Shown: piece by piece, positions 6,290 to 63,783 of the stretch
Numbering within the stretch: the stretch's first letter is position 1
Layout of the letters: each line of letters starts with the position of its first letter
Virus record (IMG/VR): IMGVR_UViG_3300025697_002467
Reading direction: 5' to 3' (one strand)
Length of the DNA stretch: 64,000 nucleotides
Origin: a virus
Taxonomy: Duplodnaviria > Heunggongvirae > Uroviricota > Caudoviricetes
Made by a program: the position numbers and the translations under genes
Notes under the pieces: model-generated
Told to the model about the DNA's origin: nothing
The model's input: the letters and a program-made list of their open reading frames with translations, nothing else
Database searches by the model: none

Positions 6290-6298
6290 AATTACTCC

Positions 6299-13448: not shown

Positions 13449-13464
13449 AAAAAAGTTTTTCTCA

Positions 13465-32098: not shown

Positions 32099-32134
32099 AC
32101 ACTTCAACAACCCACGAGAATCCAAAACTAAGCC
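32099..32134 (-). promoter_or_regulatory. conserved promoter-like motif, copy 6
   Basis: About 50 nt upstream of the ATG at 32054. Confidence 0.45.
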
Positions 32135-32135
32135 A

Positions 32136-32429
32136 TTATTTTTTCTTTTTAGCAGATTGTGCTGCTTCGATGAATCGGCCAAGGAATTTACTGTAGTATG
32201 TTTCAGCAGTTTCAACGGCAGCTTTCTGTGTTTTAGCTGTGAAATCCTCAGCCCAAACAGCATCCTCTGGGTCAATGATATCATTTTCATCTTTAATCAT
32301 GAAGAACACTTGATATTTTTTCTTGTCGTAGTCAACAGTAAGTTCATCTCCTGGAGCATGAACTAATGCAGCTCCAAAAAAACCATCATCCGAGTACCAC
32401 AAGCCTTTTGATTTCTTCTTAAATTTCAT
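32136..32429 (-). CDS. hypothetical protein
   Basis: ORF of 97 aa. Confidence 0.5.
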   Translation of the reverse strand: MKFKKKSKGLWYSDDGFFGAALVHAPGDELTVDYDKKKYQVFFMIKDENDIIDPEDAVWAEDFTAKTQKAAVETAETYYSKFLGRFIEAAQSAKKKK

Positions 32430-34015: not shown

Positions 34016-35740
34016 TCATTTCATCCTCACTTTGTACATTTTATTACCCTTGGACACAACGACAGCACCGGCATGTTTGCCGAGCTTCATATCACCACCG
34101 ACCACAGGGTCATCAATAATTTTAATTGAGGATGCATTCTTCCGGCTACTGAAAGCCTCCATCTTCTCATCCTCAGTAATGGACACACAAACCCCAGAGT
34201 CCAACGTCACGAAGTTCAAGCCTGTAGGCTGAATATCTTTGACTTCTCGGACATCATAAGATTGGTCAGTCAAATCAAATCTGAAAACCAACCTGTTATA
34301 CTTACCCTTAATTTGGCCGACGACCATCAAGACACCACCTTCAAATTTGGCATCCACGATTCGATAACCGTCCAGTTCCTTGATAGGGATCTGATATGAC
34401 TTTCCAGACTCTGGGAGCAGGGACACATAAACCGAACCCAACAGGTTCTGTATGGCCACACCCGGGTATAGCCTGGTTGCATGTTCCAACACTTGAGCTG
34501 CTTCCTTGGTGGAAGGGATAATGGTGTTCCCTACCTCAGTAAAGATAACTTCATGTATTCGATCAGCAGTACGGATATACATTCGACCATTTGTGTATGA
34601 CACTTCTTTAGTGGTCAGACCAAAAGGTAGGTTCTTTTTCAAGATCATATCCGTCATTGTAATAGGTTGAGTCGAACCATTTATCTGGACAGGACGGCTG
34701 CCACGGGGAGTGAATGTTGTTCCCGTAGCTTGGGTTGGTTGTCCAGACTTAATTTTATCTACGTACATGGCTTTGGTTGTGGCCACGACCAACTTATGAC
34801 CGTCACTCCAGAAATCCTTGATATCCCCATCGTACTCACCAATTTCAGTGATATCCAAATATTGAGTACCTGACAAGGTAACAATCTTGGGTACGAAAAT
34901 CATAGCTGCCCCGATGTCCATAGGCGGAGCACATCTCCTACCATTCTCGAATATTGCTTCATACCATTCACGGTATCCCTTGGGGATAACATCAAAGGGA
35001 TAGGCAGCTTTGGGAACTCCCACGTCCTGATTGAAAACACTAATGCCTTGTTGCATCCGTTCATCAAAGGACATTTTCTTTTTCTTATACCGGCCTTTAT
35101 AAGGATGAATCCCTGTAAACATTTGAAAAGTGACAATGCCGAAGCTGTACCAATCAGAATCAGTTGTGAATTTGTTTTTCTTAACCTTCCAGTCCTTGAC
35201 TGAAGGCATAATTGCCGTGGCAGGATAAGATTTGGTTTGATAGGAATCCACATCAATGAACATCACATCATCGAATTTCTTGGGGATGAGGAAATTCATC
35301 TCGTTCAGGTCTACAATCAAGATACCTGACTTGTGGACGTTCTCCACGCCTTCATGCATTTTCTTGACGAGCTCTTGGATAGTATTAAAGGAAATACCAT
35401 TTCTATCCCTGAAAGCACGGGGGAAAATCTGGCATAAGGACCAAGCATCTTTAACAAACTTGTAAGTGTAACCAATAGGTTTGCCACGGTCGTCTGTCAA
35501 TACTCTCTCAGGCTTAATAACCCTGGGATCAGATATCTGGGAAAGTTCCTGAATCTTGCCGAGGGGGATGACTTTCTTGGGGTCGAAGTAAACTTTGAAG
35601 GCTACCCCACCCTTCTGATAAATCCGACCTTCACCACCCTCACCAACGTAATCACGTTGAGTCAGGCTAATGGCAGCAGATTGTCCTTTGGTATAAACTT
35701 TCATTTTTTTATCCAAGCCCAACCAACGACAGGATTCCAC
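34016..35740 (-). CDS. Hanks-type Ser/Thr protein kinase with a large C-terminal domain
   Basis: Gly-rich loop GEGGEGRIY plus VAFKVY lysine, catalytic-loop-like ILIVDLNEMNF, DVDS, and the subdomain-IX-like DWYSFGIVTFQMFTG. Confidence 0.8.
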   Translation of the reverse strand: MESCRWLGLDKKMKVYTKGQSAAISLTQRDYVGEGGEGRIYQKGGVAFKVYFDPKKVIPLGKIQELSQISDPRVIKPERVLTDDRGKPIGYTYKFVKDAWSLCQIFPRAFRDRNGISFNTIQELVKKMHEGVENVHKSGILIVDLNEMNFLIPKKFDDVMFIDVDSYQTKSYPATAIMPSVKDWKVKKNKFTTDSDWYSFGIVTFQMFTGIHPYKGRYKKKKMSFDERMQQGISVFNQDVGVPKAAYPFDVIPKGYREWYEAIFENGRRCAPPMDIGAAMIFVPKIVTLSGTQYLDITEIGEYDGDIKDFWSDGHKLVVATTKAMYVDKIKSGQPTQATGTTFTPRGSRPVQINGSTQPITMTDMILKKNLPFGLTTKEVSYTNGRMYIRTADRIHEVIFTEVGNTIIPSTKEAAQVLEHATRLYPGVAIQNLLGSVYVSLLPESGKSYQIPIKELDGYRIVDAKFEGGVLMVVGQIKGKYNRLVFRFDLTDQSYDVREVKDIQPTGLNFVTLDSGVCVSITEDEKMEAFSSRKNASSIKIIDDPVVGGDMKLGKHAGAVVVSKGNKMYKVRMK

Positions 35741-38254: not shown

Positions 38255-39037
38255 TTAAAATAAATTAAGTATATTAATTTCAACTTCTTGTTTGGAGATA
38301 CGTTTTACAGCACCATCAAAGATTTCAGGATCTAATTCAATCCCTATAAAACCTCTGTTCAGTTCTATACAAGCAACCCCTGTTGTTCCTGATCCCATAG
38401 TGAAATCTAATACTAACTCATTTTCATTTGTGTAAGTTTTAACTAAATAAGTCATTAGTGCAACAGGCTTTTGGGTGGGGTGAAGTTTACTACCTTTTGG
38501 GGTGTTTGGAACACTTTTAAATTTTAACACCGTTTTGGGATTTACCTTTGTTTCATTATAAAATTTTGCTTTTTGGTTTCCCATTTTTATGTGATTAGAC
38601 TTGTTACTATTTCCCTGAAGTTTATATTTTGCTCTATCAAGGCTACTACTGTTTCTCTCGGCTAATTGCTTATTAAAAGTTGGCTTTCCTTTGTTTATAA
38701 AAATGCTTATTGTTTCATGATATTTCATAGGCATATATGAACTTTGTGCCATTCCTGTTGGCATTGATTTTTGCCATATCCAATCATATTTATAATTCTT
38801 AATATTGCTCATTCTCAAAGCACTTGAAAATGGTTCACTACCAAATAAAACAATAGCCCCATTTGGTTTTATTAATTTGTTTAACCGTTCCCACAGTTCA
38901 TCAAAAGGGATAATAAAATCCCATTTACATGCCGTGGTACCATAAGGGGGGTCCGTTATGATAGCATCTACTACAACCCCCTTTTTAATTAAAAAGTCCA
39001 TCTCTTTCAGACAATCCCCATTTATAAGATTAATCAT
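38255..39037 (-). CDS. DNA methyltransferase, N6-adenine or N4-cytosine (beta class)
   Basis: ITDPPYG (motif IV) lies N-terminal to FTMGSGTTGVAC (motif I); HPTQKP is also present. Confidence 0.8.
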   Translation of the reverse strand: MINLINGDCLKEMDFLIKKGVVVDAIITDPPYGTTACKWDFIIPFDELWERLNKLIKPNGAIVLFGSEPFSSALRMSNIKNYKYDWIWQKSMPTGMAQSSYMPMKYHETISIFINKGKPTFNKQLAERNSSSLDRAKYKLQGNSNKSNHIKMGNQKAKFYNETKVNPKTVLKFKSVPNTPKGSKLHPTQKPVALMTYLVKTYTNENELVLDFTMGSGTTGVACIELNRGFIGIELDPEIFDGAVKRISKQEVEINILNLF

Positions 39038-39942
39038 TTTCCCTCTTCCTCAATGATCTCCTCAATGTAAATAGCTCCGACCCCCAAATCGTCGTAATGT
39101 TGCCATTGCTTTTTCGGGAGAGTTTTCTTCTCAAAGGCATTAAGCCTACGTTTTACAAAAGAACCCTTCAGGTTCTTAAAACCCACTATATGAGGAAGAA
39201 CTTCAGCCAGAGGAACAGGGACTGGGGAAAGGTCACTGATATCTTGAAAAGATTCAACTCCATCACTCATCAAAACTACCAAATCTGTGTCTCTGGGATC
39301 TACAAGGAACGTGAAGTCTGGAAAACTTTCCAGTTCATCAGGAGTCCATTCCCAGATGGCTTTTTCTTCACCATCCACAATAACAGTTACTTTCCGGCCA
39401 CCGAAACCAGCCTTTTTCAGAGCTTCCATTCGGTCAGGGCTGCTAAAGTACGAAGGATAAGCTGGAGCACCCCCCTGGTCGATAATGTAAGTTTCAAGAG
39501 AACCATTCCGACGCCGGACTGACACCACACCATCTCCAAAGACCTGAACCTTGATGTAACCGGTAGGTGTGGAGTAAGCTGCCATCAATGTGGCATCCAA
39601 ACACCCCTCCGATAATTCTCTCGGATGTTCTGCAAACCACATCAATCTTTGAACATCAATATTTTTGATCGGCCCTCCTTGAATACACCTTTGTGCTGAA
39701 AGAACCAAAGACCGAGACCCAAAATCGGTATCCTTAGAAGAAGAACATCCATCTGATACAAACACAGCTACAGAGGGTGTTATCTCTTTAAAATCAAAAC
39801 ACCTTGAATAATCCTCACAGACGTGGTGGGAGGAACCAATGGTGAAATAATCATCCGTGTGAAAATGGAACTTCCGGCCATCCTCAATAGGTTTGCCCAA
39901 CGGGGGGAAAAACCTCAAATATCGTGAAATGTCAGGCTGCAT
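39034..39942 (-). CDS. PP2C-type Ser/Thr protein phosphatase-like protein
   Basis: FVSDGCSSS and VLMSDGVESF metal-binding Asp motifs in a PPM-like arrangement. Confidence 0.6.
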   Translation of the reverse strand: MQPDISRYLRFFPPLGKPIEDGRKFHFHTDDYFTIGSSHHVCEDYSRCFDFKEITPSVAVFVSDGCSSSKDTDFGSRSLVLSAQRCIQGGPIKNIDVQRLMWFAEHPRELSEGCLDATLMAAYSTPTGYIKVQVFGDGVVSVRRRNGSLETYIIDQGGAPAYPSYFSSPDRMEALKKAGFGGRKVTVIVDGEEKAIWEWTPDELESFPDFTFLVDPRDTDLVVLMSDGVESFQDISDLSPVPVPLAEVLPHIVGFKNLKGSFVKRRLNAFEKKTLPKKQWQHYDDLGVGAIYIEEIIEEEGK

Positions 39943-39959: not shown

Positions 39960-40703
39960 TCAGAAAGTGATGGACTGTGAAGGACCGCCGGTGCCCAGAG
40001 CTTGGGACTGGCTGGAAATCGACTTCGAGATGAAGTTGGCCAGCTTTGCCAGTTCGTTGGCTGTGGCATTGGCAATGGCCACATACTGCTGGAATCCACC
40101 GTTGTCACGGTAATCTTCCAGGTAGTGATTCAGGCCATTTGCAGCATCGGTGTTGACACCAATAAGAACCGGCATGATGGACTCAACTGCTTCATCGGTC
40201 TTGGCTTCACGGATGGCATCAGCCACCATCTTCATCGAAACACTGGAGCAGTTGTCATCACCATCGGTAATAACGAACACAGCCGAATTGACAGCATAAT
40301 CCTGTTCGGTCAAGTCCCGACCAAAATCGGTCATTGCTTTGACCGCATTGTAAGTGGCATCAAACAGTGAAGTTCCACCACCGGGACGGATAGTGCCGTC
40401 ATACAGGTTGTCATTGCAGTTGGAGAGGAGTTGGAACCCGTGGATTTCATCAACACGAGTGTTGAAATAAACCACACGTAACATCAGGTTATCCACACGT
40501 TTGTCCTTCTGACAGGCACGAGCGACGGTTTTGACAGCTTCTTCGATGTCCTTTCCGAACCCTGTTACGGAACCTGACACATCAACCACGAGGGTGACGA
40601 GGGTGTATTCGGAAGCTCCTGTCAGGGATTCAATCTTCTGGGCAGAAAATCCGTAGTTGGAACCGGCAATGGTTTTCATTTCCATGTCATCAGTAAATTT
40701 CAT
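39960..40703 (-). CDS. von Willebrand factor A (vWA) domain protein
   Basis: MIDAS motif LVVDVSGSV, plus GGTSLFDA and VFVITDGDDN. Confidence 0.8.
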   Translation of the reverse strand: MKFTDDMEMKTIAGSNYGFSAQKIESLTGASEYTLVTLVVDVSGSVTGFGKDIEEAVKTVARACQKDKRVDNLMLRVVYFNTRVDEIHGFQLLSNCNDNLYDGTIRPGGGTSLFDATYNAVKAMTDFGRDLTEQDYAVNSAVFVITDGDDNCSSVSMKMVADAIREAKTDEAVESIMPVLIGVNTDAANGLNHYLEDYRDNGGFQQYVAIANATANELAKLANFISKSISSQSQALGTGGPSQSITF

Positions 40704-41987: not shown

Positions 41988-42301
41988 TTATTATCTCCTG
42001 TTCGGCGTACCCGTAGCCATATGGCCAACCATTTATGTTTGTAAGAGAAATCATATTGTTTCTTTCGTACATGGGATGAGTAATCAGCAATAAACCCGTC
42101 TTTAAGCAATCGACCAAGAACCATCGATGCAATATTAATACTGATTCTGGCTGCCTTAGCAACTTCACGAGATGTTGCAATCCCGTTGATAGAGGCCAGG
42201 CTAGCCAGAACTTTACGTTTTTGGGGGGGCAACTCATCCATTGTAGCAGTGAATATAGGAGTCATTTCATCAAGAACTATTTTTTGGTTTTCTGTTAACA
42301 T
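41984..42301 (-). CDS. winged-helix DNA-binding protein (MarR/ArsR-like)
   Basis: LASINGIATSREVAKAARISINIASMVLGRLLKDGFI HTH region. Confidence 0.5.
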   Translation of the reverse strand: MLTENQKIVLDEMTPIFTATMDELPPQKRKVLASLASINGIATSREVAKAARISINIASMVLGRLLKDGFIADYSSHVRKKQYDFSYKHKWLAIWLRVRRTGDNK

Positions 42302-43401
42302 TATATCTCCAAACCATTAGACAAAATACCTGCCTTAACCAACTCGGCACGAGTACCGAGACTTGGGATAGCTGGGTTTTCTTTGTGCCGAGTTATCTTC
42401 TCAGCTCTACGAGCAGCCCATAGGTAATCTGCAACTTTGGGTGGTTCCATATCTTTAGGGAAAATACCTTTATCTTTAGAAATCAATATCATATGGTCTA
42501 TTAAACCAGACAGGTTAGGGACATCATCCCGAAACAAAACATCACCTATAGTTAGTTTAGGGAAAGGGGGTTCCATACCTGGAGGGTATAGACCACTTGC
42601 CCAAGCATTAGCATACTTAAATTCCGTATCCAGCAGACGAGACATTCTTTCGATGGTCCCATATTCAATAATCTTGCCTGTTTCAGGATCAACTTTACCA
42701 TAGGTAAAAGATACTCCTGTCCAGCTTTTCAGTTCGTCCTCATCGTTATGGTCATCACCATCACCCCAAAGGTCGGGGGAAGGTTTGACGGAGATCAATT
42801 CTTTGAAACACTCACCAAGAACTGAATCAGGGTGACGTTGTGAAATGCCCCAAGCCATCTGGAATACTTCTGTTTTGGTCAGCATTTCCATAGGGTTAGT
42901 GTCAACTTCTCCATCCCCACCTTTTTGGTAGAAGCGGAGGAATCGGTCTTCACATTCGTTGCCTGTACCATGACGAAGGCCACCACCATTCAGGCGGTTA
43001 AAGAAACGTCCGATAGGTGCTCGAAGTGTAGACTTAAAAGAACCTACGATAGTAGGGTCGAGTGCTATACGTTCATCAGCAGCCTTACCTAATTTCATTT
43101 TCATATCAAAAACCAGATCATTAAACAGTTCGGTTATATCGAAATCCACGAATTGAGCTTCAAGAGCATCCACTGCTAATTTTCTAGCCCGTTCGGTTTG
43201 TTCAGGGTTTGTATTGATTTTGGAATGAACTAATATAACATTTTCCACACCCAGAGCCTCTATCAACAGGTAAGCCATCACAGCGGAGTCGATGCCACCA
43301 GACAAGTCCAGTTCAGCTTTCTTTATACCACATTCTCTATGGTATGCTTGAATAGCAAAGATTCGGTTTTGTATTAAAAGTTCAATATTTGGTACACTCA
43401 T
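42301..43401 (-). CDS. nadE: NAD+ synthetase (NadE family, PP-loop ATP pyrophosphatase)
   Basis: SGGIDSAV PP-loop; GTGNECEDRF...GGDGEVDTNPMEMLTKTEV matches the NadE core. Confidence 0.8.
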   Translation of the reverse strand: MSVPNIELLIQNRIFAIQAYHRECGIKKAELDLSGGIDSAVMAYLLIEALGVENVILVHSKINTNPEQTERARKLAVDALEAQFVDFDITELFNDLVFDMKMKLGKAADERIALDPTIVGSFKSTLRAPIGRFFNRLNGGGLRHGTGNECEDRFLRFYQKGGDGEVDTNPMEMLTKTEVFQMAWGISQRHPDSVLGECFKELISVKPSPDLWGDGDDHNDEDELKSWTGVSFTYGKVDPETGKIIEYGTIERMSRLLDTEFKYANAWASGLYPPGMEPPFPKLTIGDVLFRDDVPNLSGLIDHMILISKDKGIFPKDMEPPKVADYLWAARRAEKITRHKENPAIPSLGTRAELVKAGILSNGLEI

Positions 43402-43416: not shown

Positions 43417-43450
43417 ATATCAACAACCCACAACTTCGGGAAACTAAGCC
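43417..43450 (-). promoter_or_regulatory. conserved promoter-like motif, copy 7
   Basis: Immediately upstream of the nadE RBS: GTGGGTTGTTGATATAGAAGGAGAACCAAAATG on the coding strand. Confidence 0.45.
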
Positions 43451-44946
43451 AGTTTTTCAGACATCTCGTTAATTCTCATCACACACAAGGCTTGGTATGC
43501 TCTTGTAGTGGGGCTGAATGCCACATCTTTGTCCAGAGAAGGTCGATCCATCCCAGCCTCTAACAGACTGAATCCAATAGGAGGTTCTTCTCCTGCTTGG
43601 CCAATAATGCCAGTGATCTCAGTAAACTCTGTAAAGCCAGAGGTATTCTGACGGAAAATAACAGGGACACCTGGAAGTGATGCTTTAGCCGGTGCTGAAT
43701 CACAAGTCTTCATTACAGGAACATTGCTGGTCATGCTGAGTTTATAGACTGCCGAAACTCTATCACGGGTCAGATCGGTGAATTCGGGTTTAACGAAGAA
43801 CCCACCAGCACCATACAAACGGCGTTCTTTGATGATACCAAACTTATTACAGAGAGCCTCAAAGTGCAAAACTTTCTTATCGTTGATACTGTCCTCGAAA
43901 ATGTAATCTCCATTATCCAAGTCTGCCTGTCCCACACACATTGCAAGCTGGACATCCTGATCTCCAGAATCAAACCTGATAAAGAAATCCCTGTTAGGAG
44001 TTTCTCTCATCACTTTGAAAGCAGCGGGGAGACCTAATTCTATAGGGCTAAAAGTATCTGGCAAACAAGAAGGTTTACCTGATCTCATATCTCTCATAGC
44101 ACGACAGGCAGTTAAATCATCTCCCCATCTCAGGATATGTTCATGGCCTGTTGTTCCAACGGCTTTCATACCTAATTTCTCAGCCAGATAAACATTAGAG
44201 GTGCTGTTGATACCGAGATCCTTGAGGACTTGTAGAGCTATCTCGTGCATTTCCATACAGGAGCAAGCTCTCATACCGACTTCAAATAAACGGCTGGGGT
44301 CTTTATCGTCCAGAGCATCAATTAAGGACTGTGCTCTATCTGAAACATCCTGTTCATATCGTTCCTGTTCAACGGTGATGATTCGGGTACTGTCGTCTTT
44401 TCCGATAGCTTTAAGAGTAGCATGGACGATGTTTGCTTCATCCTCACAGGTACACCTGAACTCTTTTTTGTCGTTCAATAAAACTTCCGTAGCTACCTGA
44501 ATGGGGAAATGAAGCATCAAGGCCAAAGGTTCCATAACCGAAACAGGAAACGATGGGCATGTGAGTGCAAAGAAAGGTTCTTTCTCACGGACCCATGAAC
44601 CCTTGGGGGCTGCATTGATAGTGACAGAATCTTTATCTTTCAACATCTCAATAGACTCTACCATTCCAGGTGTCAAACTATAACCCATTGAATCCAAAAA
44701 AGAGGCCTCGTGTTGCCGAGGTTGCCCTGTTGGAAGCAATCCTCTAATGACAGTTTCAACGTCAAACGGGACGTAATACATTCCTTTACGTCTGAATGAC
44801 ATATAGAAGGTCTCCTCCCGCATTGGGAAACCAGCTTGTGCCATTGCAAATTTATACCCATCGGTCTTCAAAACTGAAGGACCAGAATATACATATCCAA
44901 GGATATGTTCAATCAGTTCTTGTTCGTATGTGAGTTCCATTTTCAT
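43444..44946 (-). CDS. nicotinate/nicotinamide phosphoribosyltransferase (NAPRT/NAMPT family)
   Basis: TDGYKF (TDSYK-like), IRFDSGDQD (RPDSG-like) and LYGAGGFF (GSGGG-like) motifs. The 500-aa length is typical of NadV/NAMPT. Confidence 0.8.
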   Translation of the reverse strand: MKMELTYEQELIEHILGYVYSGPSVLKTDGYKFAMAQAGFPMREETFYMSFRRKGMYYVPFDVETVIRGLLPTGQPRQHEASFLDSMGYSLTPGMVESIEMLKDKDSVTINAAPKGSWVREKEPFFALTCPSFPVSVMEPLALMLHFPIQVATEVLLNDKKEFRCTCEDEANIVHATLKAIGKDDSTRIITVEQERYEQDVSDRAQSLIDALDDKDPSRLFEVGMRACSCMEMHEIALQVLKDLGINSTSNVYLAEKLGMKAVGTTGHEHILRWGDDLTACRAMRDMRSGKPSCLPDTFSPIELGLPAAFKVMRETPNRDFFIRFDSGDQDVQLAMCVGQADLDNGDYIFEDSINDKKVLHFEALCNKFGIIKERRLYGAGGFFVKPEFTDLTRDRVSAVYKLSMTSNVPVMKTCDSAPAKASLPGVPVIFRQNTSGFTEFTEITGIIGQAGEEPPIGFSLLEAGMDRPSLDKDVAFSPTTRAYQALCVMRINEMSEKLA

Positions 44947-45027
44947 ATTTTCAAACCTTCCTTACTTTATAAGTTAGTGTGTCTTTCACACTAAGTCAAG
45001 CTGTTTCTCAAAAGAACTTCATATTTC

Positions 45028-45063
45028 TTACCCCAACAACCCACAAGAAATGAAAACTAAGCC
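45028..45063 (-). promoter_or_regulatory. conserved promoter-like motif, copy 8 (minus-oriented half of a divergent pair)
   Basis: Back-to-back with the inverted copy at 45078..45113. Confidence 0.45.
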
Positions 45064-45077
45064 GAATTTGATTTTTT

Positions 45078-45113
45078 AGCTTAGTTTCGGGTAGTAGTGG
45101 GTTGTTGTAGTAG
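45078..45113 (+). promoter_or_regulatory. conserved promoter-like motif, copy 9 (plus orientation)
   Basis: AGCTTAGTTT-N9-GTGGGTTGTTGTAGTAG sits about 24 nt upstream of the ATG at 45134, the first gene of the plus-strand operon. Confidence 0.5.
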
Positions 45114-45133
45114 AACAAAGAAAGGAAAAGATT

Positions 45134-45820
45134 ATGGATCTTAGTTGCACGACCCCGAAATATAATAAAATATATGCTCCTTGGCTGGCTAATCCAGGTA
45201 AGCTGTTGGATCTGGCCGAATACAAAGTCGGTGATACCCTATTGGATTTGGCCGGTGGGACAGGAGCTATATCTGAAGAAGCTTTACGGCGTATCCATCA
45301 AGAACGAGCCATTCTCAGATTTGATGAAGGTTTGTCTCTTTTGGATATGAACCCTCGTACAAAACATAACAGCATCAAAGTATCAAAAGGATATGTTGAG
45401 AACGTAGACAATATTTACATCAAAGATTCCTTTAATATCGTTGTCTGCCGTCAGGCCGTTGGTTATATTTATATGGATCAAGCCATTCCAGGCATCTGGA
45501 AGGTTCTAAAGTCCGGTGGGCGTTTCGTTTTCAACTCCTTCGGTAAACCCTCACGAACTAGATTCCGATATCACAAAACAAAAAACGGGGTAAGATTTGC
45601 TGAGTTCAGCCTACGAATAGAAGACCATGTTTTCCATATCCAAGCTCGACTCAATCAAAGACCTGGGATAGATTTCTCATGGTTTAAATACTGGTCTGCT
45701 AAAGAACTTCACGATCTTTTAATGCCGTGGTTCAAAGTAGATATTTTTCAGAAACATAATTCATTTAACTGGGTTTGTACTAAAAGAGATTTAGGGCTGC
45801 CCGCAAGGAGAAAAACATGA
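45134..45820 (+). CDS. class I SAM-dependent methyltransferase
   Basis: Motif I LLDLAGGTGAIS. It is the first gene of the plus-strand operon and is preceded by the inverted promoter motif. Confidence 0.7.
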   Translation: MDLSCTTPKYNKIYAPWLANPGKLLDLAEYKVGDTLLDLAGGTGAISEEALRRIHQERAILRFDEGLSLLDMNPRTKHNSIKVSKGYVENVDNIYIKDSFNIVVCRQAVGYIYMDQAIPGIWKVLKSGGRFVFNSFGKPSRTRFRYHKTKNGVRFAEFSLRIEDHVFHIQARLNQRPGIDFSWFKYWSAKELHDLLMPWFKVDIFQKHNSFNWVCTKRDLGLPARRKT

Positions 45821-46020
45821 ATAGTAGTATTGTAATAGGTGTTTTAATAACACTTGGGGTTCTTTTTGTTTGTTTTGAAGGTTTTATGGATAACAATCCT
45901 AAAAATCAGGAGAGCTCCGGGAGAATGGTTCCAACTGGCAAAGATGTGCCGTTTGTTAACAAACGGAATTGTATCGGATTACAAGAAACAGAAAATTCAA
46001 AAGAATCTGGATATCCTTGA
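45817..46020 (+). CDS. small membrane protein
   Basis: ATGA start/stop overlap with the upstream gene; an N-terminal transmembrane helix. Confidence 0.4.
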   Translation: MNSSIVIGVLITLGVLFVCFEGFMDNNPKNQESSGRMVPTGKDVPFVNKRNCIGLQETENSKESGYP

Positions 46021-46129
46021 AAAAGAAAAGGGTCAGATTATCTGGAATAAAAACCACACCAAATACGAAGCTGAGGTAACTCTGGATGCTTTGAAAGAAC
46101 AATACGAGGCATGGGCTTCGGGTAAATAG
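45944..46129 (+). CDS. hypothetical protein (alternative frame; overlaps the 45817..46020 ORF)
   Basis: Internal Met of the listed 45854..46129 ORF; charged C-terminal part. Only one of the two overlapping ORFs is likely real. Confidence 0.3.
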   Translation: MCRLLTNGIVSDYKKQKIQKNLDILEKEKGQIIWNKNHTKYEAEVTLDALKEQYEAWASGK

Positions 46130-46147
46130 CCTAAGAGAGGTACAAGT

Positions 46148-46399
46148 ATGTTGTCCCGTATAAATATGGTTGGAATGTCCCAAGTAGTTTTAGGCATAGC
46201 ATATGATAATGAACAGGCTAATGAGGCATCTGATAAAGCAAGGGATGCCCTGAGCCTTCTTGAAAATCCTATGAACAAAGGGAAAGTCATAGAGATGACA
46301 TGCTTCAACCTGAAGGACGAGAACATACATCGGAAGGCTTTCCAGATGAGACTGTCTACAGAACAGATGGAACGAGTTTTCTTTATCCGATATTTTTGA
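46148..46399 (+). CDS. hypothetical protein
   Basis: ORF of 83 aa. Confidence 0.45.
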   Translation: MLSRINMVGMSQVVLGIAYDNEQANEASDKARDALSLLENPMNKGKVIEMTCFNLKDENIHRKAFQMRLSTEQMERVFFIRYF

Positions 46400-46416
46400 A
46401 ACTGAGGAGACCTTAA

Positions 46417-46749
46417 ATGATAATTAGAATTGAGAAGTCAGGTAATAACTATCGAGCCTATATGAAGGACCTACCAGGAAGTCCTCCTGTTGGGACAGCT
46501 CAGACCCCAGAAAAAGCAGTGGCTGATATGTTTTTCAGGGTACTCCATCCTAATAACCAGAACCCTTGGACACAATACATAGACTTCAAAACTTTAGAAA
46601 TTGAAATGGTTACAGACCCTGGTGAAGATCAACAAACCTTCTGCCACATTTGCGGAGCAGAATGGCACGATAAAAACCCAGCCTGTCCGAACGTAGGTTG
46701 TTCTGATAATCAAGATTTGGAGCAGAGCTTTGATGCAAAAACTAACTGA
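46417..46749 (+). CDS. hypothetical protein
   Basis: ORF of 110 aa with a good RBS (tgaggagaccttaaatg). Confidence 0.5.
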   Translation: MIIRIEKSGNNYRAYMKDLPGSPPVGTAQTPEKAVADMFFRVLHPNNQNPWTQYIDFKTLEIEMVTDPGEDQQTFCHICGAEWHDKNPACPNVGCSDNQDLEQSFDAKTN

Positions 46750-47350
46750 TTCAGACCTTGTTTTTCAGGAGCACAAAGAAGAGGTTGTAGAATATCTGGT
46801 ACACCGAGGATTCACCGTCAGGGAGGGAGCTGATGCTCTTACCCTTGTGGTCAGTAAAAACGAGCTGGAAATCCTAACATTTTGGTGGGACACTGAGAAA
46901 GAAGCCTGGAGTCCTTGGTTTATGGGTCCTCCTATCAGAACCCTGAAAGATCTCGATGTAGTTATAAACTCAGCCAATGCTAATGAGGAGACTCTCAGAT
47001 TAGTTGATAAAACTTGGGAGGTGTATCTCAACCATGAAAACGATGAAAATTGGATGAGTTATCTCGGTTCTCAATGTCCTTTTTACCAGAAGGCTAATAC
47101 TTGGGGTAGTATACTGGATGAAATGTCGGAGGATCTTGAGGCAATAAAAAAACTGGCACTTAAAGCAGCCGATATGTTGTGGAATCGAGGAAAAGGACAT
47201 TTAGGTTATATATCCCTGAACGACCCCTCCATGTCAATAAAACCAAAGACTCAAGGATTCACGGTAGATGACCTATTCCAAATGAACCAGAAGATATATG
47301 ACCTACTAGGAAAGATTGGATACCCTGAGAAGGAAAAGAAAAATGATTGA
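46730..47350 (+). CDS. hypothetical protein
   Basis: ORF of 206 aa. Confidence 0.5.
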   Translation: MMQKLTDSDLVFQEHKEEVVEYLVHRGFTVREGADALTLVVSKNELEILTFWWDTEKEAWSPWFMGPPIRTLKDLDVVINSANANEETLRLVDKTWEVYLNHENDENWMSYLGSQCPFYQKANTWGSILDEMSEDLEAIKKLALKAADMLWNRGKGHLGYISLNDPSMSIKPKTQGFTVDDLFQMNQKIYDLLGKIGYPEKEKKND

Positions 47351-47582
47351 CTTAACTAAAGGACAAACCTTGTTTCTCGACCAAATGACTCGAAAACTCT
47401 TGGTAGGTTGGTGTGACAAATCTCTCCAAGGTGTTCGTTTTATGGAAGTGACTGAGATCGAAACTAAGAAAGAACATAAAGTTTATTTAGAATACGCTCA
47501 AAAGAAAGGTTTTGTCTCTGCTGATGGAACCCGTATTCTTGCCAAAGGGTGGCAAGCTGCCACCAGTTTTCTTAAACGATAG
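47343..47582 (+). CDS. hypothetical protein
   Basis: Internal Met MIDLTKGQ of the listed 47316..47582 ORF. Confidence 0.4.
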   Translation: MIDLTKGQTLFLDQMTRKLLVGWCDKSLQGVRFMEVTEIETKKEHKVYLEYAQKKGFVSADGTRILAKGWQAATSFLKR

Positions 47583-47592
47583 GAGAAGTACT

Positions 47593-47874
47593 ATGAACAA
47601 GATGCTTAAGAAAGACCTGTTAGCCGATCTGGCCACGACAACTAACATGAGCCAAACTCAAGTTGATGCCGTCCTGACCAGCTTGGCCAAACTTGTTGCC
47701 ACGCAAACTCTCGAAAACGACACTGCCGTTGTTATCATGGGTTTGGGGACATTCACACCGAACTTCAAGAAAGCACGTACTGGCCGTAATCCTGCTACAG
47801 GAGCACCTCTGCAAATTGCAGCCAAGACCGTTATCAAGTTCAAGCCCGTTGCAAGTCTGGTCAAAGCCGGTTAA
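47593..47874 (+). CDS. HU/IHF-family DNA-binding protein
   Basis: MNKMLKKDLLADLA...GLGTFTPNFKKARTGRNPATGAPLQIAAKTVIKFKPVASLVKAG carries the RNPxTG arm motif of HU. RBS aggagaagtactatg. Confidence 0.85.
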   Translation: MNKMLKKDLLADLATTTNMSQTQVDAVLTSLAKLVATQTLENDTAVVIMGLGTFTPNFKKARTGRNPATGAPLQIAAKTVIKFKPVASLVKAG

Positions 47875-47894
47875 CACGCCTTTCCAGTTCTAAA

Positions 47895-47929
47895 CCCACA
47901 GGCAGTCTAATCTGCCTGTGGGTATTTTT
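47895..47929 (+). terminator. rho-independent terminator (plus strand)
   Basis: Perfect 11-bp stem CCCACAGGCAG/CTGCCTGTGGG with a 6-nt loop, followed by TATTTTT. Confidence 0.6.
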
Positions 47930-48395
47930 GGAGAAAATGGTTATGATAGCCTTTATTACAGAAATACTTACGACAAAAATATACCCTTATGCCTTACCTT
48001 ATCTATTGATCATTATGGCTATGGTTGTAGCCAAGATCATAATGTACAGATCCAAAAAACCCCAAACGGGTGTTGAATGCATTACAAAAGAACGGCAGTT
48101 TCAAAAGAACATTGGGTTTAATGATAAACATGATGATACTCAGATTCAAAGAGAACTTGTCCAGCTTGGGGTGGCATATGCATCCCACGGAGTCCCTATG
48201 AAATCCTATGAGCCAGAGTTATGGGACGGGGTTGGGTTTTTCCCAAATGGTTGGGATTATTCCCTATGGAATCCCTCTGAAGTAGACCCTAAAGACATGA
48301 CTATCGATGGCCGTATCCGACATCTGACTATTGCAGGTGCTTTAATGGCAGCTGAAATTGATAGACTCGAACGCCAAAAGAAAAAACAAATCTAA
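47928..48395 (+). CDS. membrane protein
   Basis: Two N-terminal transmembrane helices in 155 aa. Confidence 0.5.
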   Translation: MEKMVMIAFITEILTTKIYPYALPYLLIIMAMVVAKIIMYRSKKPQTGVECITKERQFQKNIGFNDKHDDTQIQRELVQLGVAYASHGVPMKSYEPELWDGVGFFPNGWDYSLWNPSEVDPKDMTIDGRIRHLTIAGALMAAEIDRLERQKKKQI

Positions 48396-48429
48396 CACCA
48401 AACCTTCAGAAACGAAATAGGTTCATTAT

Positions 48430-48945
48430 ATGATTGACTTAGTAGTGATGGATCTTTCTGATGATAAAGTGTTAGACATAATGGCAACCTACAGTAAAAC
48501 CATTCTACATAAGATGTTCCGTAATGGAATGCAGTTGATGTCCGAACTTACCAGTGAACAATGCATTCAGGATAACTGTCCCGGACTCTGCTGTTCCCCA
48601 GAACAATGTGAAATTGTAAAAAATGATTTAGATGGCCAAGGGGTAAAGTATGAAACAGGCACCGACCCACGGATGCCCTTCTTGACCGAAACTGGTTGTA
48701 TCTTAGAACCTTGGCAAAGGCCAATATGCACTTTACATATTTGTGATAAGCTTCTTGTGGTTGATACAGAGTTCTACGACAGATATTTTCATCTTCGGTC
48801 AAACTTGGATCTTTTAATGTATTTGCTAGATGAGGATGATGAATGTCTGAAAAAACAAATATGCAGTTGGCCAAAGCCCTCCGAATCATCGGAAACCTCC
48901 TCAAAGGGAATTCAGGATCTGATAAAAAAGCTGAAGAATTTCTAA
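48430..48945 (+). CDS. hypothetical Cys-rich protein
   Basis: ORF of 171 aa with multiple CxxC and CC pairs. Confidence 0.5.
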   Translation: MIDLVVMDLSDDKVLDIMATYSKTILHKMFRNGMQLMSELTSEQCIQDNCPGLCCSPEQCEIVKNDLDGQGVKYETGTDPRMPFLTETGCILEPWQRPICTLHICDKLLVVDTEFYDRYFHLRSNLDLLMYLLDEDDECLKKQICSWPKPSESSETSSKGIQDLIKKLKNF

Positions 48946-49055
48946 AAAGTGTTGAATCTCACGAAATCTTATTGAATCCGCTGGAGACGACTACAACAGT
49001 AAAACCACACTGGTTCCAAAGCAATTCTATTTGGGGGAACACCGATGGCAAATAA
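48843..49055 (+). CDS. hypothetical protein (overlaps the preceding ORF)
   Basis: ORF of 70 aa in an alternative frame. Confidence 0.3.
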   Translation: MSEKTNMQLAKALRIIGNLLKGNSGSDKKAEEFLKSVESHEILLNPLETTTTVKPHWFQSNSIWGNTDGK

Positions 49056-49410
49056 AGGATACTACACAATTATCCAATATATCCCTGACCAAGGACGACT
49101 CGAATCTGTCAATATAGGTGTTGTCTTGGTTATTCCTGATCTGGAGTATGTTGGGGTTTCTTCAGGCTACCCAAATAGCTATCATAGAGCTCATGCATTT
49201 TTCCCTGATGTAGATTTAAGCTGGTTATCAACAGCTATGGACAGTTTGACTAATAGAATACGTATAACATCCCCCACAAAGCTCGAATTTGGCTCTCTAA
49301 TCAACACTAGAGCCAATGAACTCAGAATGACACCCCTTCGGGCTATGAAGGTCATAGAGAAGCCCTCAGAAGCTCTGAAGAAACTCAAAGCAGAACTCGT
49401 TGATGTCTAA
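49045..49410 (+). CDS. DUF3037-like hypothetical protein
   Basis: N-terminus YYTIIQYIPDQGRLESVNIGVVLV resembles the DUF3037 signature. Confidence 0.4.
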   Translation: MANKGYYTIIQYIPDQGRLESVNIGVVLVIPDLEYVGVSSGYPNSYHRAHAFFPDVDLSWLSTAMDSLTNRIRITSPTKLEFGSLINTRANELRMTPLRAMKVIEKPSEALKKLKAELVDV

Positions 49411-49455
49411 CCAATAAAAATATCTCTCCTTAAAATTTAGGGTAAATAACATCAC

Positions 49456-49490
49456 GGCTTAGTTTTCGTTTCCCGTGGGTTGTTGAAGTG
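49456..49490 (+). promoter_or_regulatory. conserved promoter-like motif, copy 10 (plus orientation)
   Basis: GGCTTAGTTT-N9-GTGGGTTGTTGAAGTG sits about 40 nt upstream of the ATG at 49526. Confidence 0.5.
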
Positions 49491-49525
49491 TAAAGAGTTC
49501 AGTAACTCAAAAATAAGGTTTTGAT

Positions 49526-49738
49526 ATGAAAGACCCTTTTAAAATTAACCCTTTCGGAAATTTAACCGATCAGGAACAGAAAGCTTATAACAATATACGC
49601 CTATACCAAGAGAATGGTTGGTTTATAGCAAGCTGGATTCCCGGAGGTGTTAGTGGCCGATTGATTGATAACGGTAAAAATGAGACACAAACTATGAAAG
49701 ATGCTATTAAAAAAGCCATTGATTTAGGATTAATATAG
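49526..49738 (+). CDS. hypothetical protein
   Basis: ORF of 70 aa preceded by the promoter motif. Confidence 0.45.
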   Translation: MKDPFKINPFGNLTDQEQKAYNNIRLYQENGWFIASWIPGGVSGRLIDNGKNETQTMKDAIKKAIDLGLI

Positions 49739-49741
49739 GAG

Positions 49742-50389
49742 ATGGACATGAGAAGTATAAAAATACGTGACCCTTTGGTATTGGAATGTATTGAATACAT
49801 GAAAAGAATGCACGAAGGACAGGTCAGAAGGGTTAACAAAACACCCTTCTATATTCATCCTCTCAGGGTCCTTGAGCTTCTGGAAGAAGCACCGTTCTTT
49901 TTCTCAGCCCGTGACAAATGTGCTGCCCTACTTCATGACGTGAAAGAAGACAGCCCCCTATTCTCGTGGGACGAGATTGTGGACAAATTCAGTCCGTGGG
50001 TGGCCGGTGTAGTTGCCCTGCTTTCCAAAGCAAAACTAGGTGAAACACAACCCGCTGTCTATTTCCATATGCTCCGGCATACCCATCCTAACATTATTGC
50101 AATCAAGATATGTGACCGTATCAGTAATACTGAGGATTTCAATATTATCACGGATGCTGTTTGGTTGGAGAAATACCTCTCTGAAACAATAGAACTCGTA
50201 CATCCCCTGATTCAACTACTGGTTGCCCGTGGAAGTATGATGTCTCCACAAGGTTACTTCAAATTGGGAGTCTGGCTTGAGAAAAAACTTCAACATAACC
50301 TACACGGTATGCAAGTCCGACTCAGAGAACTCCAAGTTGTTGAAATGGAAAAAGAAATACAAAAAGCAGACCCTTCGGACAAGAAATAG
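49742..50389 (+). CDS. RelA/SpoT-type HD-domain small alarmone hydrolase (SAH)
   Basis: MHEGQVRRVNKTPFYIHPLRVLELL...AALLHDVKEDS matches the (p)ppGpp-hydrolase HD core (HxGQxR...HPL...AALLHDxxED). Confidence 0.8.
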   Translation: MDMRSIKIRDPLVLECIEYMKRMHEGQVRRVNKTPFYIHPLRVLELLEEAPFFFSARDKCAALLHDVKEDSPLFSWDEIVDKFSPWVAGVVALLSKAKLGETQPAVYFHMLRHTHPNIIAIKICDRISNTEDFNIITDAVWLEKYLSETIELVHPLIQLLVARGSMMSPQGYFKLGVWLEKKLQHNLHGMQVRLRELQVVEMEKEIQKADPSDKK

Positions 50390-50506: not shown

Positions 50507-50541
50507 GCATCCCCCAACATTGGGGGATGCCCATAGTTTTA
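50507..50541 (+). terminator. terminator-like hairpin (plus strand)
   Basis: A 10-bp stem GCATCCCCCA/TGGGGGATGC followed by CCATAGTTTTAT. Confidence 0.45.
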
Positions 50542-50940
50542 TGCTTGAGCCTCTTTTAACTACCGCCACTCAGGACCTCTCCAGAACCCCCACCGATCTC
50601 AACTGAGATTCACAATGTATTGTTGGATACAAATGATGCCCTTATGGGTACAGGCCACTATTCTTATCGGGATCACCGGATTTTTATTCGGCTCGATTCG
50701 TTGGTTTTTTAACCTAATTACACCCCCAAAGAAAAAATCCGCAAGGGGTAAGAAATAAGAGTTAAATCTTATTTTGGCAGATTATCTGCCAATTGGGGAA
50801 AGCAAAGAGTTTTCAAAGACTTAGGTCTTCTCAGCTCTTAGTGTCCTGCCCACTCCTGGGCAGTGTGACTTTTAGGCATAAAAAAACGGCCAAAACCCCC
50901 AGTTAGGGATTTTGACCGTGTGTGTGTTAAGGAGTTTGGT

Positions 50941-51483
50941 TTACAGTACTTTACGAATGCTCCCGCCCGATATCTTCAAAGCCCCGGGTGCTATTTTCTT
51001 AATAGAAGCTAAGATGGAAACCACTACAGCATCATAAGGTTTTCGAGCAGTCTTACAAAAAGCAAAAGCATTGGTGGTTTCTTTTTGCATGTAGAAAGAC
51101 TCATGAGAAAGATCATCTGGACCATCTGGACCGATATATTTCTTATTACCGTTCAGAGAGATAAGTTTATTATTCAGGATAGGTTTGCCTGTACCGAAAG
51201 GTCCGAAAATCTGAATGCCATCAAGAGCAATTTCTTCATCGTAATAATCCCCAGAAGGTGCTTTCAATTTTGTTGTTCTAGCAGCTTTGGCAATGATCTG
51301 TTTTGACACCTGTATGATCTTAGACCATTCCTGATCGGTAAAAGGACGGAGGATATCCCAATAATGGGTGTAACCTGCCTGCTTGGTCGTTGAGGTTTCT
51401 TTCAAAATCGGGACTAAATGTTCCCGGATACCGTCAGGATTGTCGTTGGCTAATTTTACTAATTTGTTTCGTAAGTTACTCAT
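50941..51483 (-). CDS. hypothetical protein (tandem paralog A)
   Basis: Internal Met MSNLRNKLVKLANDNPDGIREHLVP of the listed 50941..51522 ORF; homologous to the C-terminal half of the 51488..52813 product. Confidence 0.5.
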   Translation of the reverse strand: MSNLRNKLVKLANDNPDGIREHLVPILKETSTTKQAGYTHYWDILRPFTDQEWSKIIQVSKQIIAKAARTTKLKAPSGDYYDEEIALDGIQIFGPFGTGKPILNNKLISLNGNKKYIGPDGPDDLSHESFYMQKETTNAFAFCKTARKPYDAVVVSILASIKKIAPGALKISGGSIRKVL

Positions 51484-51487
51484 AGTG

Positions 51488-52813
51488 TTACCCTTCCAAG
51501 GCTTTATCAAAAAATTTGGCAATATTTAAAGAAGTTGCTGCCTGTGTAGACAGTTTAACTTTTTCATCTACATATTTTCCAAATGCTGTTAGGTTCACAG
51601 TGTTATTATCATAATTGGGGAAAACACCCAATGTGATTTTCACAATATCAACCTTCGTATGGATATACAACCGAGGTATCCTGACTTCAATACTTAATAT
51701 TTTCACAGGAGTATGCATCTTGGTTATGATTGTTTTAGCCATGTCGTTCATCATTTTCTCATAAGAACCGAGAATTGTCTCACCACCAGCATAAATGCGT
51801 TTAATGGCACTCGATCCACCATCAGATGACACCCTCACTGACTTAGGAGCTATCTTCTTAATTGCTGCCAAAATAGAAACTATGACAGCATCATAAGGAC
51901 GCTGTTCAGTTTTGCAGAATTCATTCTGCTCTGTCGGGTACTTGGATACAAGAAAACCCTCATACTGGTCATCAGTAGAACGATCACCGTTTATTAAAAT
52001 CTCCTTATTCGTCAAGATCGGTGACCCTGTACCCATCCCATTACGAATGATAATCCCGTCTTTTTTAGCTTTTCCGATTATCTGTTTTGTAACCCGAATA
52101 ATCTTAGACCACTCTTGATCAGTGAAAGGCTCTGTCCAATGATGTTCTGGAGTTGTTTGATACTCCAAGTAGTGAGTGTAACCGGCCTGCTTGGCCATTG
52201 AAGCCTCTTTAGGCTCTCCTACAGGACCGTCACCGTTGGCATCTCCGTTGGCATCTCCCTTGCCTTTACCCTTGGATTTTGTTTTGTTGCCTGGATCGGC
52301 ACATTCAGCACTCTTTAACAAAGGAACCAAATGCTCCCGAATACCATCAGGGTTATCGTTGGCTAATTTTACTAATTTTTCTCTTAAATTACTCATAGTG
52401 TTTCCTTCTTTTTGTCGAGGTCTTTTTAGAAAAATCTTTAAATGCTTTATCAAACCACGGGCAATCTTCTGACCTGTAGCATCTGTTAAATTATTAAACG
52501 ATAAAACATACTTATCTGATTTCTCAACCCCATACCGTTTATCAGCTATATTAGCATGTATCTCAATGTCATTAAGACTCAAATCCTGATGAAAAGAATT
52601 CAAATGGTATGCAATGCTAAATAGAAAATGACCGTGAGTAGCATCATAACCCTTAGCTACCATCTGAAACATAATCTTATTCTCAAGATAATTGTTTGCA
52701 AAATCAAAATGAGTCACTTTACCATAGGAACGTAAAGCTTTCTGAACCTGTACCCAGACATGCTTCACAACCTGCTTTGTAACAAAATTCATTTTAAAAG
52801 CGGACCTATCCAT
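51488..52813 (-). CDS. hypothetical protein (441 aa): N-terminal domain fused to a copy of the paralog A domain
   Basis: Contains the internal ...KEGNTMSNLREKLVKLANDNPDGIREHLVP repeat of the downstream gene's start context, plus a Gly/Asp/Ala/Asn-rich low-complexity linker. Confidence 0.55.
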   Translation of the reverse strand: MDRSAFKMNFVTKQVVKHVWVQVQKALRSYGKVTHFDFANNYLENKIMFQMVAKGYDATHGHFLFSIAYHLNSFHQDLSLNDIEIHANIADKRYGVEKSDKYVLSFNNLTDATGQKIARGLIKHLKIFLKRPRQKEGNTMSNLREKLVKLANDNPDGIREHLVPLLKSAECADPGNKTKSKGKGKGDANGDANGDGPVGEPKEASMAKQAGYTHYLEYQTTPEHHWTEPFTDQEWSKIIRVTKQIIGKAKKDGIIIRNGMGTGSPILTNKEILINGDRSTDDQYEGFLVSKYPTEQNEFCKTEQRPYDAVIVSILAAIKKIAPKSVRVSSDGGSSAIKRIYAGGETILGSYEKMMNDMAKTIITKMHTPVKILSIEVRIPRLYIHTKVDIVKITLGVFPNYDNNTVNLTAFGKYVDEKVKLSTQAATSLNIAKFFDKALEG

Positions 52814-61810: not shown

Positions 61811-61845
61811 TACTACAACAACCCACAACTTTCAGAAACTAAGCT
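61811..61845 (-). promoter_or_regulatory. conserved promoter-like motif, copy 11
   Basis: Directly upstream of the RBS of the gene starting at 61796. Confidence 0.45.
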
Positions 61846-62993: not shown

Positions 62994-63029
62994 TTACTTC
63001 AACAACCCACAATAAAGAGAAACTAAGCC
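62994..63029 (-). promoter_or_regulatory. conserved promoter-like motif, copy 12
   Basis: About 20 nt upstream of the ATG at 62977. Confidence 0.45.
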
Positions 63030-63746: not shown

Positions 63747-63783
63747 CTTACTACAACAACCCACAGATTAAAGAAACTAATCC
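63747..63783 (-). promoter_or_regulatory. conserved promoter-like motif, copy 13 (variant AAACTAATCC)
   Basis: About 36 nt upstream of the ATG at 63712. Confidence 0.4.

Follow-up and report, generated by a model that had tools for sequence, protein, structure and literature searches.

The region considered here is a block of rightward-facing genes in a window of 64,000 nucleotides (nt), the whole stretch of DNA that was analysed, from the IMG/VR virus record IMGVR_UViG_3300025697_002467 (Caudoviricetes). Among the products of the block are a class I S-adenosylmethionine (SAM)-dependent methyltransferase, an HU/IHF-family protein, a stand-alone DUF3037 protein and a protein of the small alarmone hydrolase (SAH) type. 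Within 45134-50389 every open reading frame (ORF) of at least 120 amino acids (aa) lies on the plus strand, and the rest of the window is almost entirely minus-strand; the other plus-strand genes, for an HNH endonuclease (7400-7774) and for zf-FCS proteins (12633-13328 and 15665-16357), are isolated singles. The first-pass annotation of this DNA was thus right to name it the only long, multi-gene plus-strand block of the window. Gene calls stored for identical contigs match our ORF list, giving a 228-aa methyltransferase, proteins of 67, 83, 110, 205 and 79 aa, a 93-aa HU protein, proteins of 150 and 171 aa, the 121-aa DUF3037 protein, a 70-aa protein and a 213-aa HD protein. We consider it likely that this is a variable accessory block of a very large phage, made up of at least two transcription units and carrying a stand-alone alarmone hydrolase predicted to sustain host translation.

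Metagenomic contigs reaching 402 kb in length encode hydrolase, methyltransferase and DUF3037 proteins identical to those of the block, and the DNA of the region was assembled identically and independently from several JGI and ENA samples. Contigs of the relatives measure 381-520 kb, the window contains 28 tRNA genes, and a megablast search of the block against 50,697 deposited phage records returned no match. The huge contigs, the sizes of the relatives, the tRNA set and the lack of a near match among phage genomes together indicate that the window is part of an uncultured huge phage, whose genome may be put at about 400 kb. The order methyltransferase, HU, hydrolase is also found in the related locus L015, to which most comparisons below refer, and in the 444/381-kb phage (L012/L009), in each case with different intervening cargo; it was not found in L007/L010 or L008. 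Since the order is kept with differing cargo in some relatives and lost in others, it is best described as a conserved scaffold with variable accessory genes, in which no functional module has been demonstrated. The 28 tRNA genes, which cover most amino acids, all lie on the minus strand between 1116 and 26917, and one of them (23265-23340) has an unusual anticodon loop. The related loci that were compared contained no tRNA genes, so any linkage between hydrolase and tRNA genes is not local.

The hydrolase gene (49748-50389, plus strand) encodes a single-domain RSH/HD_4 protein of 213 aa. Its ORF also permits a start at 49742, the position first annotated, but 49748 is most likely the true start, with AGGAG 6 nt upstream and with the gene calls and the relatives in agreement. 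The protein was matched by TIGR00691 (1.4e-11) and phrog_990 (2.5e-17), and a phmmer search of the PDB retrieved Rel, SpoT, Mesh1 and SAH chains at 1e-8 to 1e-5. Several close homologues carry precomputed HD_4 matches, and in a distant-relative alignment of the window protein with its 29 nearest cluster representatives all 30 sequences matched HD_4, the best with an E-value of 2.2e-40. Members of the family are 213-215 aa long with HD_4/HD matches only, and no RelA_SpoT domain was found among the 30 relatives. The signature on which the alarmone hydrolase assignment had been founded is present (HEGQVRR...IHPL...AALLHDVKED). Among 21 family members of 54-88% identity there is no variation at H39, H65, D66, D70, D125 and N129 and almost none at R29 and E69; across the 30 more distant sequences the invariant residues are H24, R29, H39, H65, D66, K122, D125 and N129. 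In a HMMER alignment to human Mesh1 (3nr1), R29, H39, H65, D66, E69, D70, D125 and N129 fall on Mesh1 R24, H35, H61, D62, E65, D66, D122 and N126, which are the metal ligands and catalytic residues of that enzyme. All His and Asp residues of the HD motif, whose absence would have spoken against the assignment, are therefore present and conserved.

The predicted fold agrees with this assignment. The AlphaFold2 (AF2) model is confident, with a predicted local distance difference test (pLDDT) score of 91 and a predicted template-modelling score (pTM) of 0.87, and the 44 best Foldseek matches in the PDB are of the RSH type (SAHs, Mesh1 and the hydrolase domains of Rel, SpoT and RelA), except for four chains of 7smg, the (p)ppApp hydrolase of B. 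caccae, at ranks 36 and 38-40. These matches include PaSAH, Mesh1, RelH, Rel and SpoT, with target-normalised template-modelling scores (TM-scores) of up to 0.82. Among the best viral structural matches are jumbo-phage proteins that carry a (p)ppGpp hydrolase annotation, and proteins of the jumbo phages GAP32, Alexandra, FBKp24 and CcrSC are among the structural matches. A profile search of 1.84 billion cluster representatives yielded 22,969 relatives at E<=1e-3 and only 7 at E<=1e-30; the family is thus very large, and the clade of the protein within it is narrow and diverged. With profile, conservation and fold in agreement, the HD protein can be assigned to the small alarmone hydrolases, as had been proposed, and is predicted to be active.

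A bipartite motif of 29 nt, GCTTAGTTT-N9-GTGGGTTGTTG, usually followed by tAGTA, recurs in the window. Thirteen copies were found, 12 of them exact and one with a single mismatch, against none in 100 shuffles. Eleven are on the minus strand (7330-7358, 13468-13496, 14213-14241, 23403-23431, 27499-27527, 32105-32133, 43421-43449, 45034-45062, 61816-61844, 63000-63028 and 63754-63782) and two on the plus strand (45079-45107 and 49457-49485). All are intergenic and oriented towards a downstream gene, in most cases ∼18-50 nt from its start codon; the genes so preceded include NAD synthase, a NAPRTase-like gene, the methyltransferase, the hydrolase unit and a tRNA-Met gene (13372-13449), the last with the motif ending 18 nt upstream. 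The copy in front of a tRNA gene favours a promoter over a translational element. A scan for the sigma-70 consensus gave 16 sites where 14.5 were expected, hence no enrichment, and none of them lies in the spacer upstream of the methyltransferase (44947-45133). The motif thus looks like a phage-specific promoter class, unlike the sigma-70 consensus, and exact copies of it are also found in L015.

Two inverted copies of the motif form the divergent pair at the left edge of the block. The minus-strand copy at 45034-45062, an exact match conserved in L015, points towards the NAPRTase-like gene (43444-44946, minus strand), and the plus-strand copy, P1 (45079-45107), likewise invariant in L015, lies 26 nt 5' of the methyltransferase ATG. 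In L015 both copies of the pair are invariant, and the spacers between copies vary. The back-to-back promoter motifs of the first-pass annotation are accordingly confirmed, as copies of a recurrent motif. The interval 45029-45115 folds as RNA with -33 kcal/mol (z = -4.8), and we considered it as a structured 5' untranslated region (5'-UTR) or riboswitch; this was rejected, as the apparent stem consists of the two inverted motif copies, which occur singly elsewhere before genes and a tRNA, and an Rfam search of the interval gave no match. Between the minus-strand copy and the NAPRTase-like start (44946), in the 5' leader of that gene, lies a perfect 8+8 palindrome, TTAGTGTG-TCTTT-CACACTAA (44974-44994), invariant in L015 although neighbouring bases vary. 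A search of the window for further copies that might signal a regulon gave no more than expected by chance, leaving this single one. It is possibly an operator or a 5'-UTR hairpin; its GT-N7-AC core resembles the operators of NrtR, a regulator that the phage encodes.

Within the block an intrinsic terminator, T1 (47894-47923, plus strand), begins 20 nt past the HU stop codon and consists of a 12-bp stem with 8 G-C pairs followed by the T run ATTTTTGG; its stem is conserved in L015. A second plus-strand copy of the motif, P2 (49457-49485), matches exactly and lies 40 nt 5' of the 70-aa ORF in front of the hydrolase gene. In L015 a copy stands at the equivalent position, directly after DUF3037, though the genes from there to the hydrolase differ. 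With a terminator after HU and a motif copy of its own before the hydrolase unit, the methyltransferase, HU and hydrolase are probably not on one transcript. The block would instead comprise at least two transcription units, each headed by a copy of the phage motif: one from P1 through the methyltransferase to HU and up to T1, the other from P2 through the 70-aa ORF and the hydrolase. No motif copy precedes the genes at 47943-49410, which may therefore need read-through of T1 or a promoter of another class.

According to the first-pass annotation, a single operon runs from one promoter over 45134-50389 and co-expresses methyltransferase, HU and hydrolase as a functional module. Its opening at the divergent promoter pair is borne out, and one can see the appeal of the rest: the genes follow one another closely on a single strand, with several start codons overlapping or adjoining the stop codon of the gene before, the order of the three genes is shared with L015 and the L012/L009 phage, and the genes at 47943-49410 could depend on read-through of T1. 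However, a strong terminator with a conserved stem directly after HU and an exact motif copy whose position is kept in L015 both divide the block, the content between the conserved genes varies among relatives, and the hydrolase of other phages lies in unrelated neighbourhoods. We therefore regard a single operon as unlikely, and prefer the reading with at least two units.

The right end of the block also lies further on than had been supposed. Hairpins are indeed found beyond 50389, namely a G+C-rich plus-strand hairpin with a weak T tail (50507-50530), a possible terminator that is poorly conserved in L015, and a bidirectional terminator hairpin whose 15-bp stem precedes TTTTTTT on the minus strand (50886-50919), conserved in L015, at the junction of the plus block and the minus-strand genes. 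Between them, however, the block continues to a final plus-strand ORF for a predicted membrane protein of 47 aa (50615-50758), kept in L015 with an in-frame 3-nt indel, which brings its length to ∼5.7 kb. Upstream of this ORF the non-coding stretch 50545-50590, CTTGAGCCTCTTTTAACTACCGCCACTCAGGACCTCTCCAGAACC, is nearly invariant between the window and L015; it may represent a small RNA or contain a promoter of a different class. Past the block, two minus-strand genes (51488-52813 and 50941-51522) encode paralogues with a common module at the N-terminus (MSNLR.KLVKLANDNPDGIREHLVP...) and a common region at the C-terminus, and related copies occur in L015.

The first gene of the block (45134-45820, plus strand) encodes the 228-aa methyltransferase, for which profiles, motifs and predicted fold bear out the class I SAM-dependent assignment made earlier. 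Both Methyltransf_11 (26.7 bits, cut-off 21.2) and Ubie_methyltran (22.8 bits, cut-off 20.1) score above their Pfam cut-offs, and D38, L39, G41, G42, G44 and D71, comprising SAM motif I and the acidic residue of motif II, are invariant in 25 homologues. Homologues number 45, many of them on phage contigs of 190-520 kb; an IMG/VR protein-pattern scan with the methyltransferase found no relatives. The AF2 model (pLDDT 88) predicts a Rossmann-like, seven-stranded fold and gave 348 PDB matches at E<=1e-3, of which the best 50 are all SAM methyltransferases. The nearest folds are the small-molecule N-methyltransferases TylM1, CcbJ, GSMT (a glycine/sarcosine N-methyltransferase) and ToxA, with TM-scores of about 0.6 and 12-16% identity. 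A PHROG match (3e-5) names a tRNA methyltransferase. A PADLOC match to mad2 (2.5e-7) is confined to the generic methyltransferase core, and we rejected the DNA methyltransferase that it would suggest, as no DPPY-type motif was seen by eye among the conserved positions and the nearest folds act on small molecules. In two relatives the gene adjoins a CoaB-like DFP gene. In the 520-kb phage of L014 (5829-10139) a homologous methyltransferase gene belongs to an island with two HD_4 hydrolases, MazG, NUDIX, LOG/DprA-like and ART-PolyVal ADP-ribosyltransferase genes.

The HU/IHF-family protein of 93 aa (47593-47874, plus strand) is canonical, as annotated. Its residues 4-91 match positions 1-87 of the 90 of PF00216 with 78.9 bits (cut-off 22.4), other matches are to phrog_379 (3.4e-22) and, in part, to the NCBIfam HU-alpha and IHF models, and the RNPxTG arm is present in the translation as GRNPATG. 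The L015 counterpart is 83% identical. The protein is predicted to bind DNA.

Two overlapping pairs of small ORFs had been left without assigned frames, and comparison with L015 largely resolves both. The first concerns a small membrane-protein gene with a frame problem (45817-46129, plus strand). At 45817 an ATG shares bases with the methyltransferase stop (ATGA), the arrangement seen also for a 101-aa gene of L015; however, the 67-aa ORF that it opens (45817-46020) found no blastp match in L015 and is not conserved past its start. What matches the 101-aa L015 protein (39% identity, 7e-19, blastp) is the frame 45854-46129, which encodes 91 aa from a TTG start, shares the frame of the methyltransferase and begins upstream of the ATG at 45944 chosen before. 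The DNA of 45817-46129 is identical in three independent assemblies, and two runs in 45817-45900, GGGG (45856-45859) and a T-rich one (45863-45880), are candidate sites for a shift. The conserved frame would thus be read either from the TTG at 45854 or through a mutational or programmed frameshift that joins both frames.

In the second pair the two ORFs differ in kind. The ORF at 48430-48945 (plus strand), encoding a cysteine-rich protein of 171 aa, is present in L015 as an intact, uncalled ORF (6085-6600) of 85.7% nucleotide identity with no gaps. Its substitutions fall 33:22:6 on third, first and second codon positions, and in the overlap with 48843-49055 nine of 14 are at its third positions; on this evidence it is a real gene. 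The 70-aa ORF at 48843-49055 (plus strand) keeps an N-terminal part of 42 aa, 69% identical to a 241-aa protein of L015 (6522-7247), together with a C-terminal tail. That L015 protein is in turn 43% identical to a 256-aa protein of L009 (6779-7549), with HE(T/I)LH conserved. By these comparisons the short ORF is an in-frame deletion remnant of a 241-256-aa HExxH protein. The metallopeptidase-like HExxH gene directly precedes DUF3037 in L015 and the hydrolase in L009.

The remaining small genes, all on the plus strand, are mostly conserved. Between the membrane-protein gene and HU lie genes for proteins of 83 aa (46148-46399; 71% identity to the syntenic L015 protein) and 110 aa (46417-46749; 61%, with a C-terminal cysteine cluster), neither with a family match, then one of 205 aa (46733-47350; 67% identity to a 210-aa protein of L015), which has no Pfam, PHROG, PADLOC or PDB match, and one of 79 aa (47343-47582; 48% identity to L015, and present also in L012/L009 and L014). 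After T1 comes a 150-aa protein with an N-terminal hydrophobic segment (47943-48395), 53% identical to its L015 counterpart and present also in L012/L009; it matches phrog_6628 (9e-9) and five other PHROGs, always over their C-terminal ∼90 residues. The 70-aa ORF before the hydrolase (49526-49738), whose stop overlaps the Shine-Dalgarno sequence of the hydrolase, has no homologue in L015 and no family match. When the 206-, 171-, 155- and 121-aa proteins were searched against PDB sequences, no match had an E-value below 0.2.

The DUF3037 gene (49045-49410, plus strand) encodes a stand-alone protein of 121 aa that matches PF11236 over the full profile (positions 1-118 of 118) with 44.4 bits (cut-off 22.6), and PADLOC model PDC-M66B over positions 5-73 of 281 (5.8e-9). 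Orthologues are found in L015 and L009; a tblastn search of the 50,697 GenBank phage records gave no match. In bacteria, DUF3037 proteins partner HipA-like kinase toxins, in the manner of antitoxins, in an anti-phage system that has been validated: deletion of DUF3037 is toxic, and the kinase is required for defence (PMC12548924, PMC13092281). The phage protein resembles those of PDC-M66, DS-6 and HipAD in having the full-length DUF3037 domain, and differs from them in having no C-terminal extension (the DNA-binding/DUF1829 part). There is no HipA-like kinase beside the gene in the window, in L015 or in L009, which represent three phage lineages, and the only kinase in the window is of the Hanks type (Pkinase, 34016-35740). 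Without an adjacent HipA-like kinase the phage gene is not a member of a two-gene system, and is at most an orphan homologue of one component. To our knowledge, no phage-encoded DUF3037 anti-defence protein has been described.

One may nonetheless speculate that the orphan DUF3037 protein is an antitoxin mimic. According to this speculation, it would form with the hydrolase a counter-defence cassette of orphan antitoxin homologues, DUF3037 acting against the HipA-like kinases of HipAD, DS-6 and PDC-M66, and the hydrolase (49748-50389) against what CapRel, FaRel and other toxSAS toxins produce, 3'-pyrophosphorylated tRNA included, so that tRNA charging and translation would be jointly protected in a phage with at least 28 tRNA genes. 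We offer this idea of a joint cassette as a rather doubtful one.

Across the divergent promoter pair, and elsewhere on the minus strand, the window is rich in nucleotide- and NAD-related genes. A group of NAD+/ADP-ribose genes codes for the NAPRTase-like protein (43444-44946), NAD synthase (42301-43401), an NrtR-type Nudix regulator (29059-29787), a Macro+4HBT protein (29979-30905) and an ADP-ribosylglycohydrolase (32426-33379), and a CTP_transf_like gene, possibly an NMNAT, is also present. From these predicted products the group looks like a set for NAD+ reconstitution and reversal of ADP-ribosylation. Genes for the Hanks-type protein kinase, a PP2C phosphatase and a VWA protein (34016-35740, 39034-39942 and 39960-40703, all minus strand) are found upstream of the NAD genes, and the order PP2C, VWA, NAD synthase, NAPRTase is kept in the 444-kb relative L012.

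How might the hydrolase serve the phage? In the reading that we favour, the block would be transcribed rightward against the surrounding leftward genes and would supply a hydrolase with a complete, presumably Mn2+-dependent active site. The substrates of the enzyme would be (p)ppGpp and/or (p)ppApp, and possibly 3'-pyrophosphorylated tRNA; by taking off their 3'-pyrophosphate it would prevent the shutdown of translation by the stringent response or by alarmone-synthetase (toxSAS) toxins. Such roles, put forward in the first-pass annotation too, are reasonable, and there is precedent for them. Stand-alone SAHs of phages PVP-SE1 and SSU5 neutralise all toxSAS toxins tested, and their authors proposed that incoming phages use SAHs to bypass alarmone-based defence (PMC7229694); PaSpo is routinely used to detoxify CapRel in protein production (PMC9712102).

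Several points weigh against this reading. The HD_4 score of the protein, 24.0 bits, is under the Pfam gathering cut-off of 27.2, the C-terminal helical extension of its clade (about residues 165-209) is not shared by most relatives, and identity to characterised hydrolases is about 20-30%, so that substrate preference cannot be read from the sequence. A conserved partner was sought, and the neighbours of the hydrolase proved unrelated in L007 and L008; being unconserved in distant phages, these neighbours do not point to a functional partner. Among the best 25 of 29 families in the window there was no alarmone synthetase. Finally, the promoter function of the motif is deduced solely from its recurrence and position.

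Could the HD protein act mainly on NADPH or some other 3'-phosphorylated nucleotide rather than on an alarmone, as metazoan Mesh1 is reported to do? It would then reshape the NAD(P) pool in concert with the NAD-salvage genes next to it. The closest relatives of known structure include Mesh1, for which structures with NADPH and 3'-phosphoadenosine-5'-phosphosulfate (PAPS) exist (5vxa, 9chy), and an orphan bacterial SAH is reported to be metabolically promiscuous (PMC9765508). The NAPRTase-like and NAD synthase genes lie just across the divergent promoter, and NrtR, the Macro-domain protein and ADP-ribosylglycohydrolase are encoded in the same window. However, more distant phages with the hydrolase do not keep its link to NAD genes, the conserved residues are those common to all RSH hydrolases, among which we identified no feature specific to NADPH binding, and the phage SAHs that have been tested act on toxSAS products. 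We therefore judge an NADPH-type substrate quite improbable. That the protein lacks catalysis, being a degenerate relic or serving in binding only, as its score under the Pfam cut-off and its narrow clade (7 cluster representatives at E<=1e-30) might suggest, is barely credible, because every catalytic residue is invariant in 21 close and 30 distant relatives and the confident model superposes on active enzymes.

If the predicted alarmone hydrolase is active, it would give a very large phage a further means of maintaining translation in its host, beside the large tRNA set and the NAD+ salvage genes, and as a diverged SAH clade found only in metagenomes it could help to map substrate specificity. 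By-products of the analysis are perhaps more useful than the hydrolase itself. The sharply defined 29-nt motif gives a transcription map of the phage. The orphan DUF3037 gene offers a candidate, open to testing, for an inhibitor of the HipA-kinase defence system that was validated recently.

Phage hydrolases of this sort, those of jumbo phages included, are already known, and the window protein is a new, diverged member. With PaSpo of SSU5, PbcSpo of PVP-SE1 and the C. marina antitoxin ATfaRel it shares the build of a single-domain RSH hydrolase, the phage gene standing without an adjacent synthetase; it differs from them in the C-terminal helical extension of its clade and in belonging to phages of about 400 kb, and neither SSU5 nor PVP-SE1 was among its tblastn matches. 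The sequenced-phage proteins that were matched by tblastn, FBKp24 included, are about 28-33% identical over partial lengths, whereas the clade of the window protein is metagenome-only. Human and Drosophila Mesh1 and the P. aeruginosa SAH (6yvc, 6z3o) have the same fold, with target-normalised TM-scores of 0.72-0.79 and identical metal and catalytic residues (R, H, HD, ED, D, N), at ∼19-24% identity and with the window protein ∼35 residues longer at its C-terminus. A parallel in setting is the 'HD-alarmone PDEase' that Iyer et al. included among the counter-nucleotide systems of jumbo phages (PMC7824862), likewise an HD-superfamily alarmone hydrolase of very large phages, which these authors read as a counter to alarmone-based immunity and listed beside NAD+-centred counter-systems.

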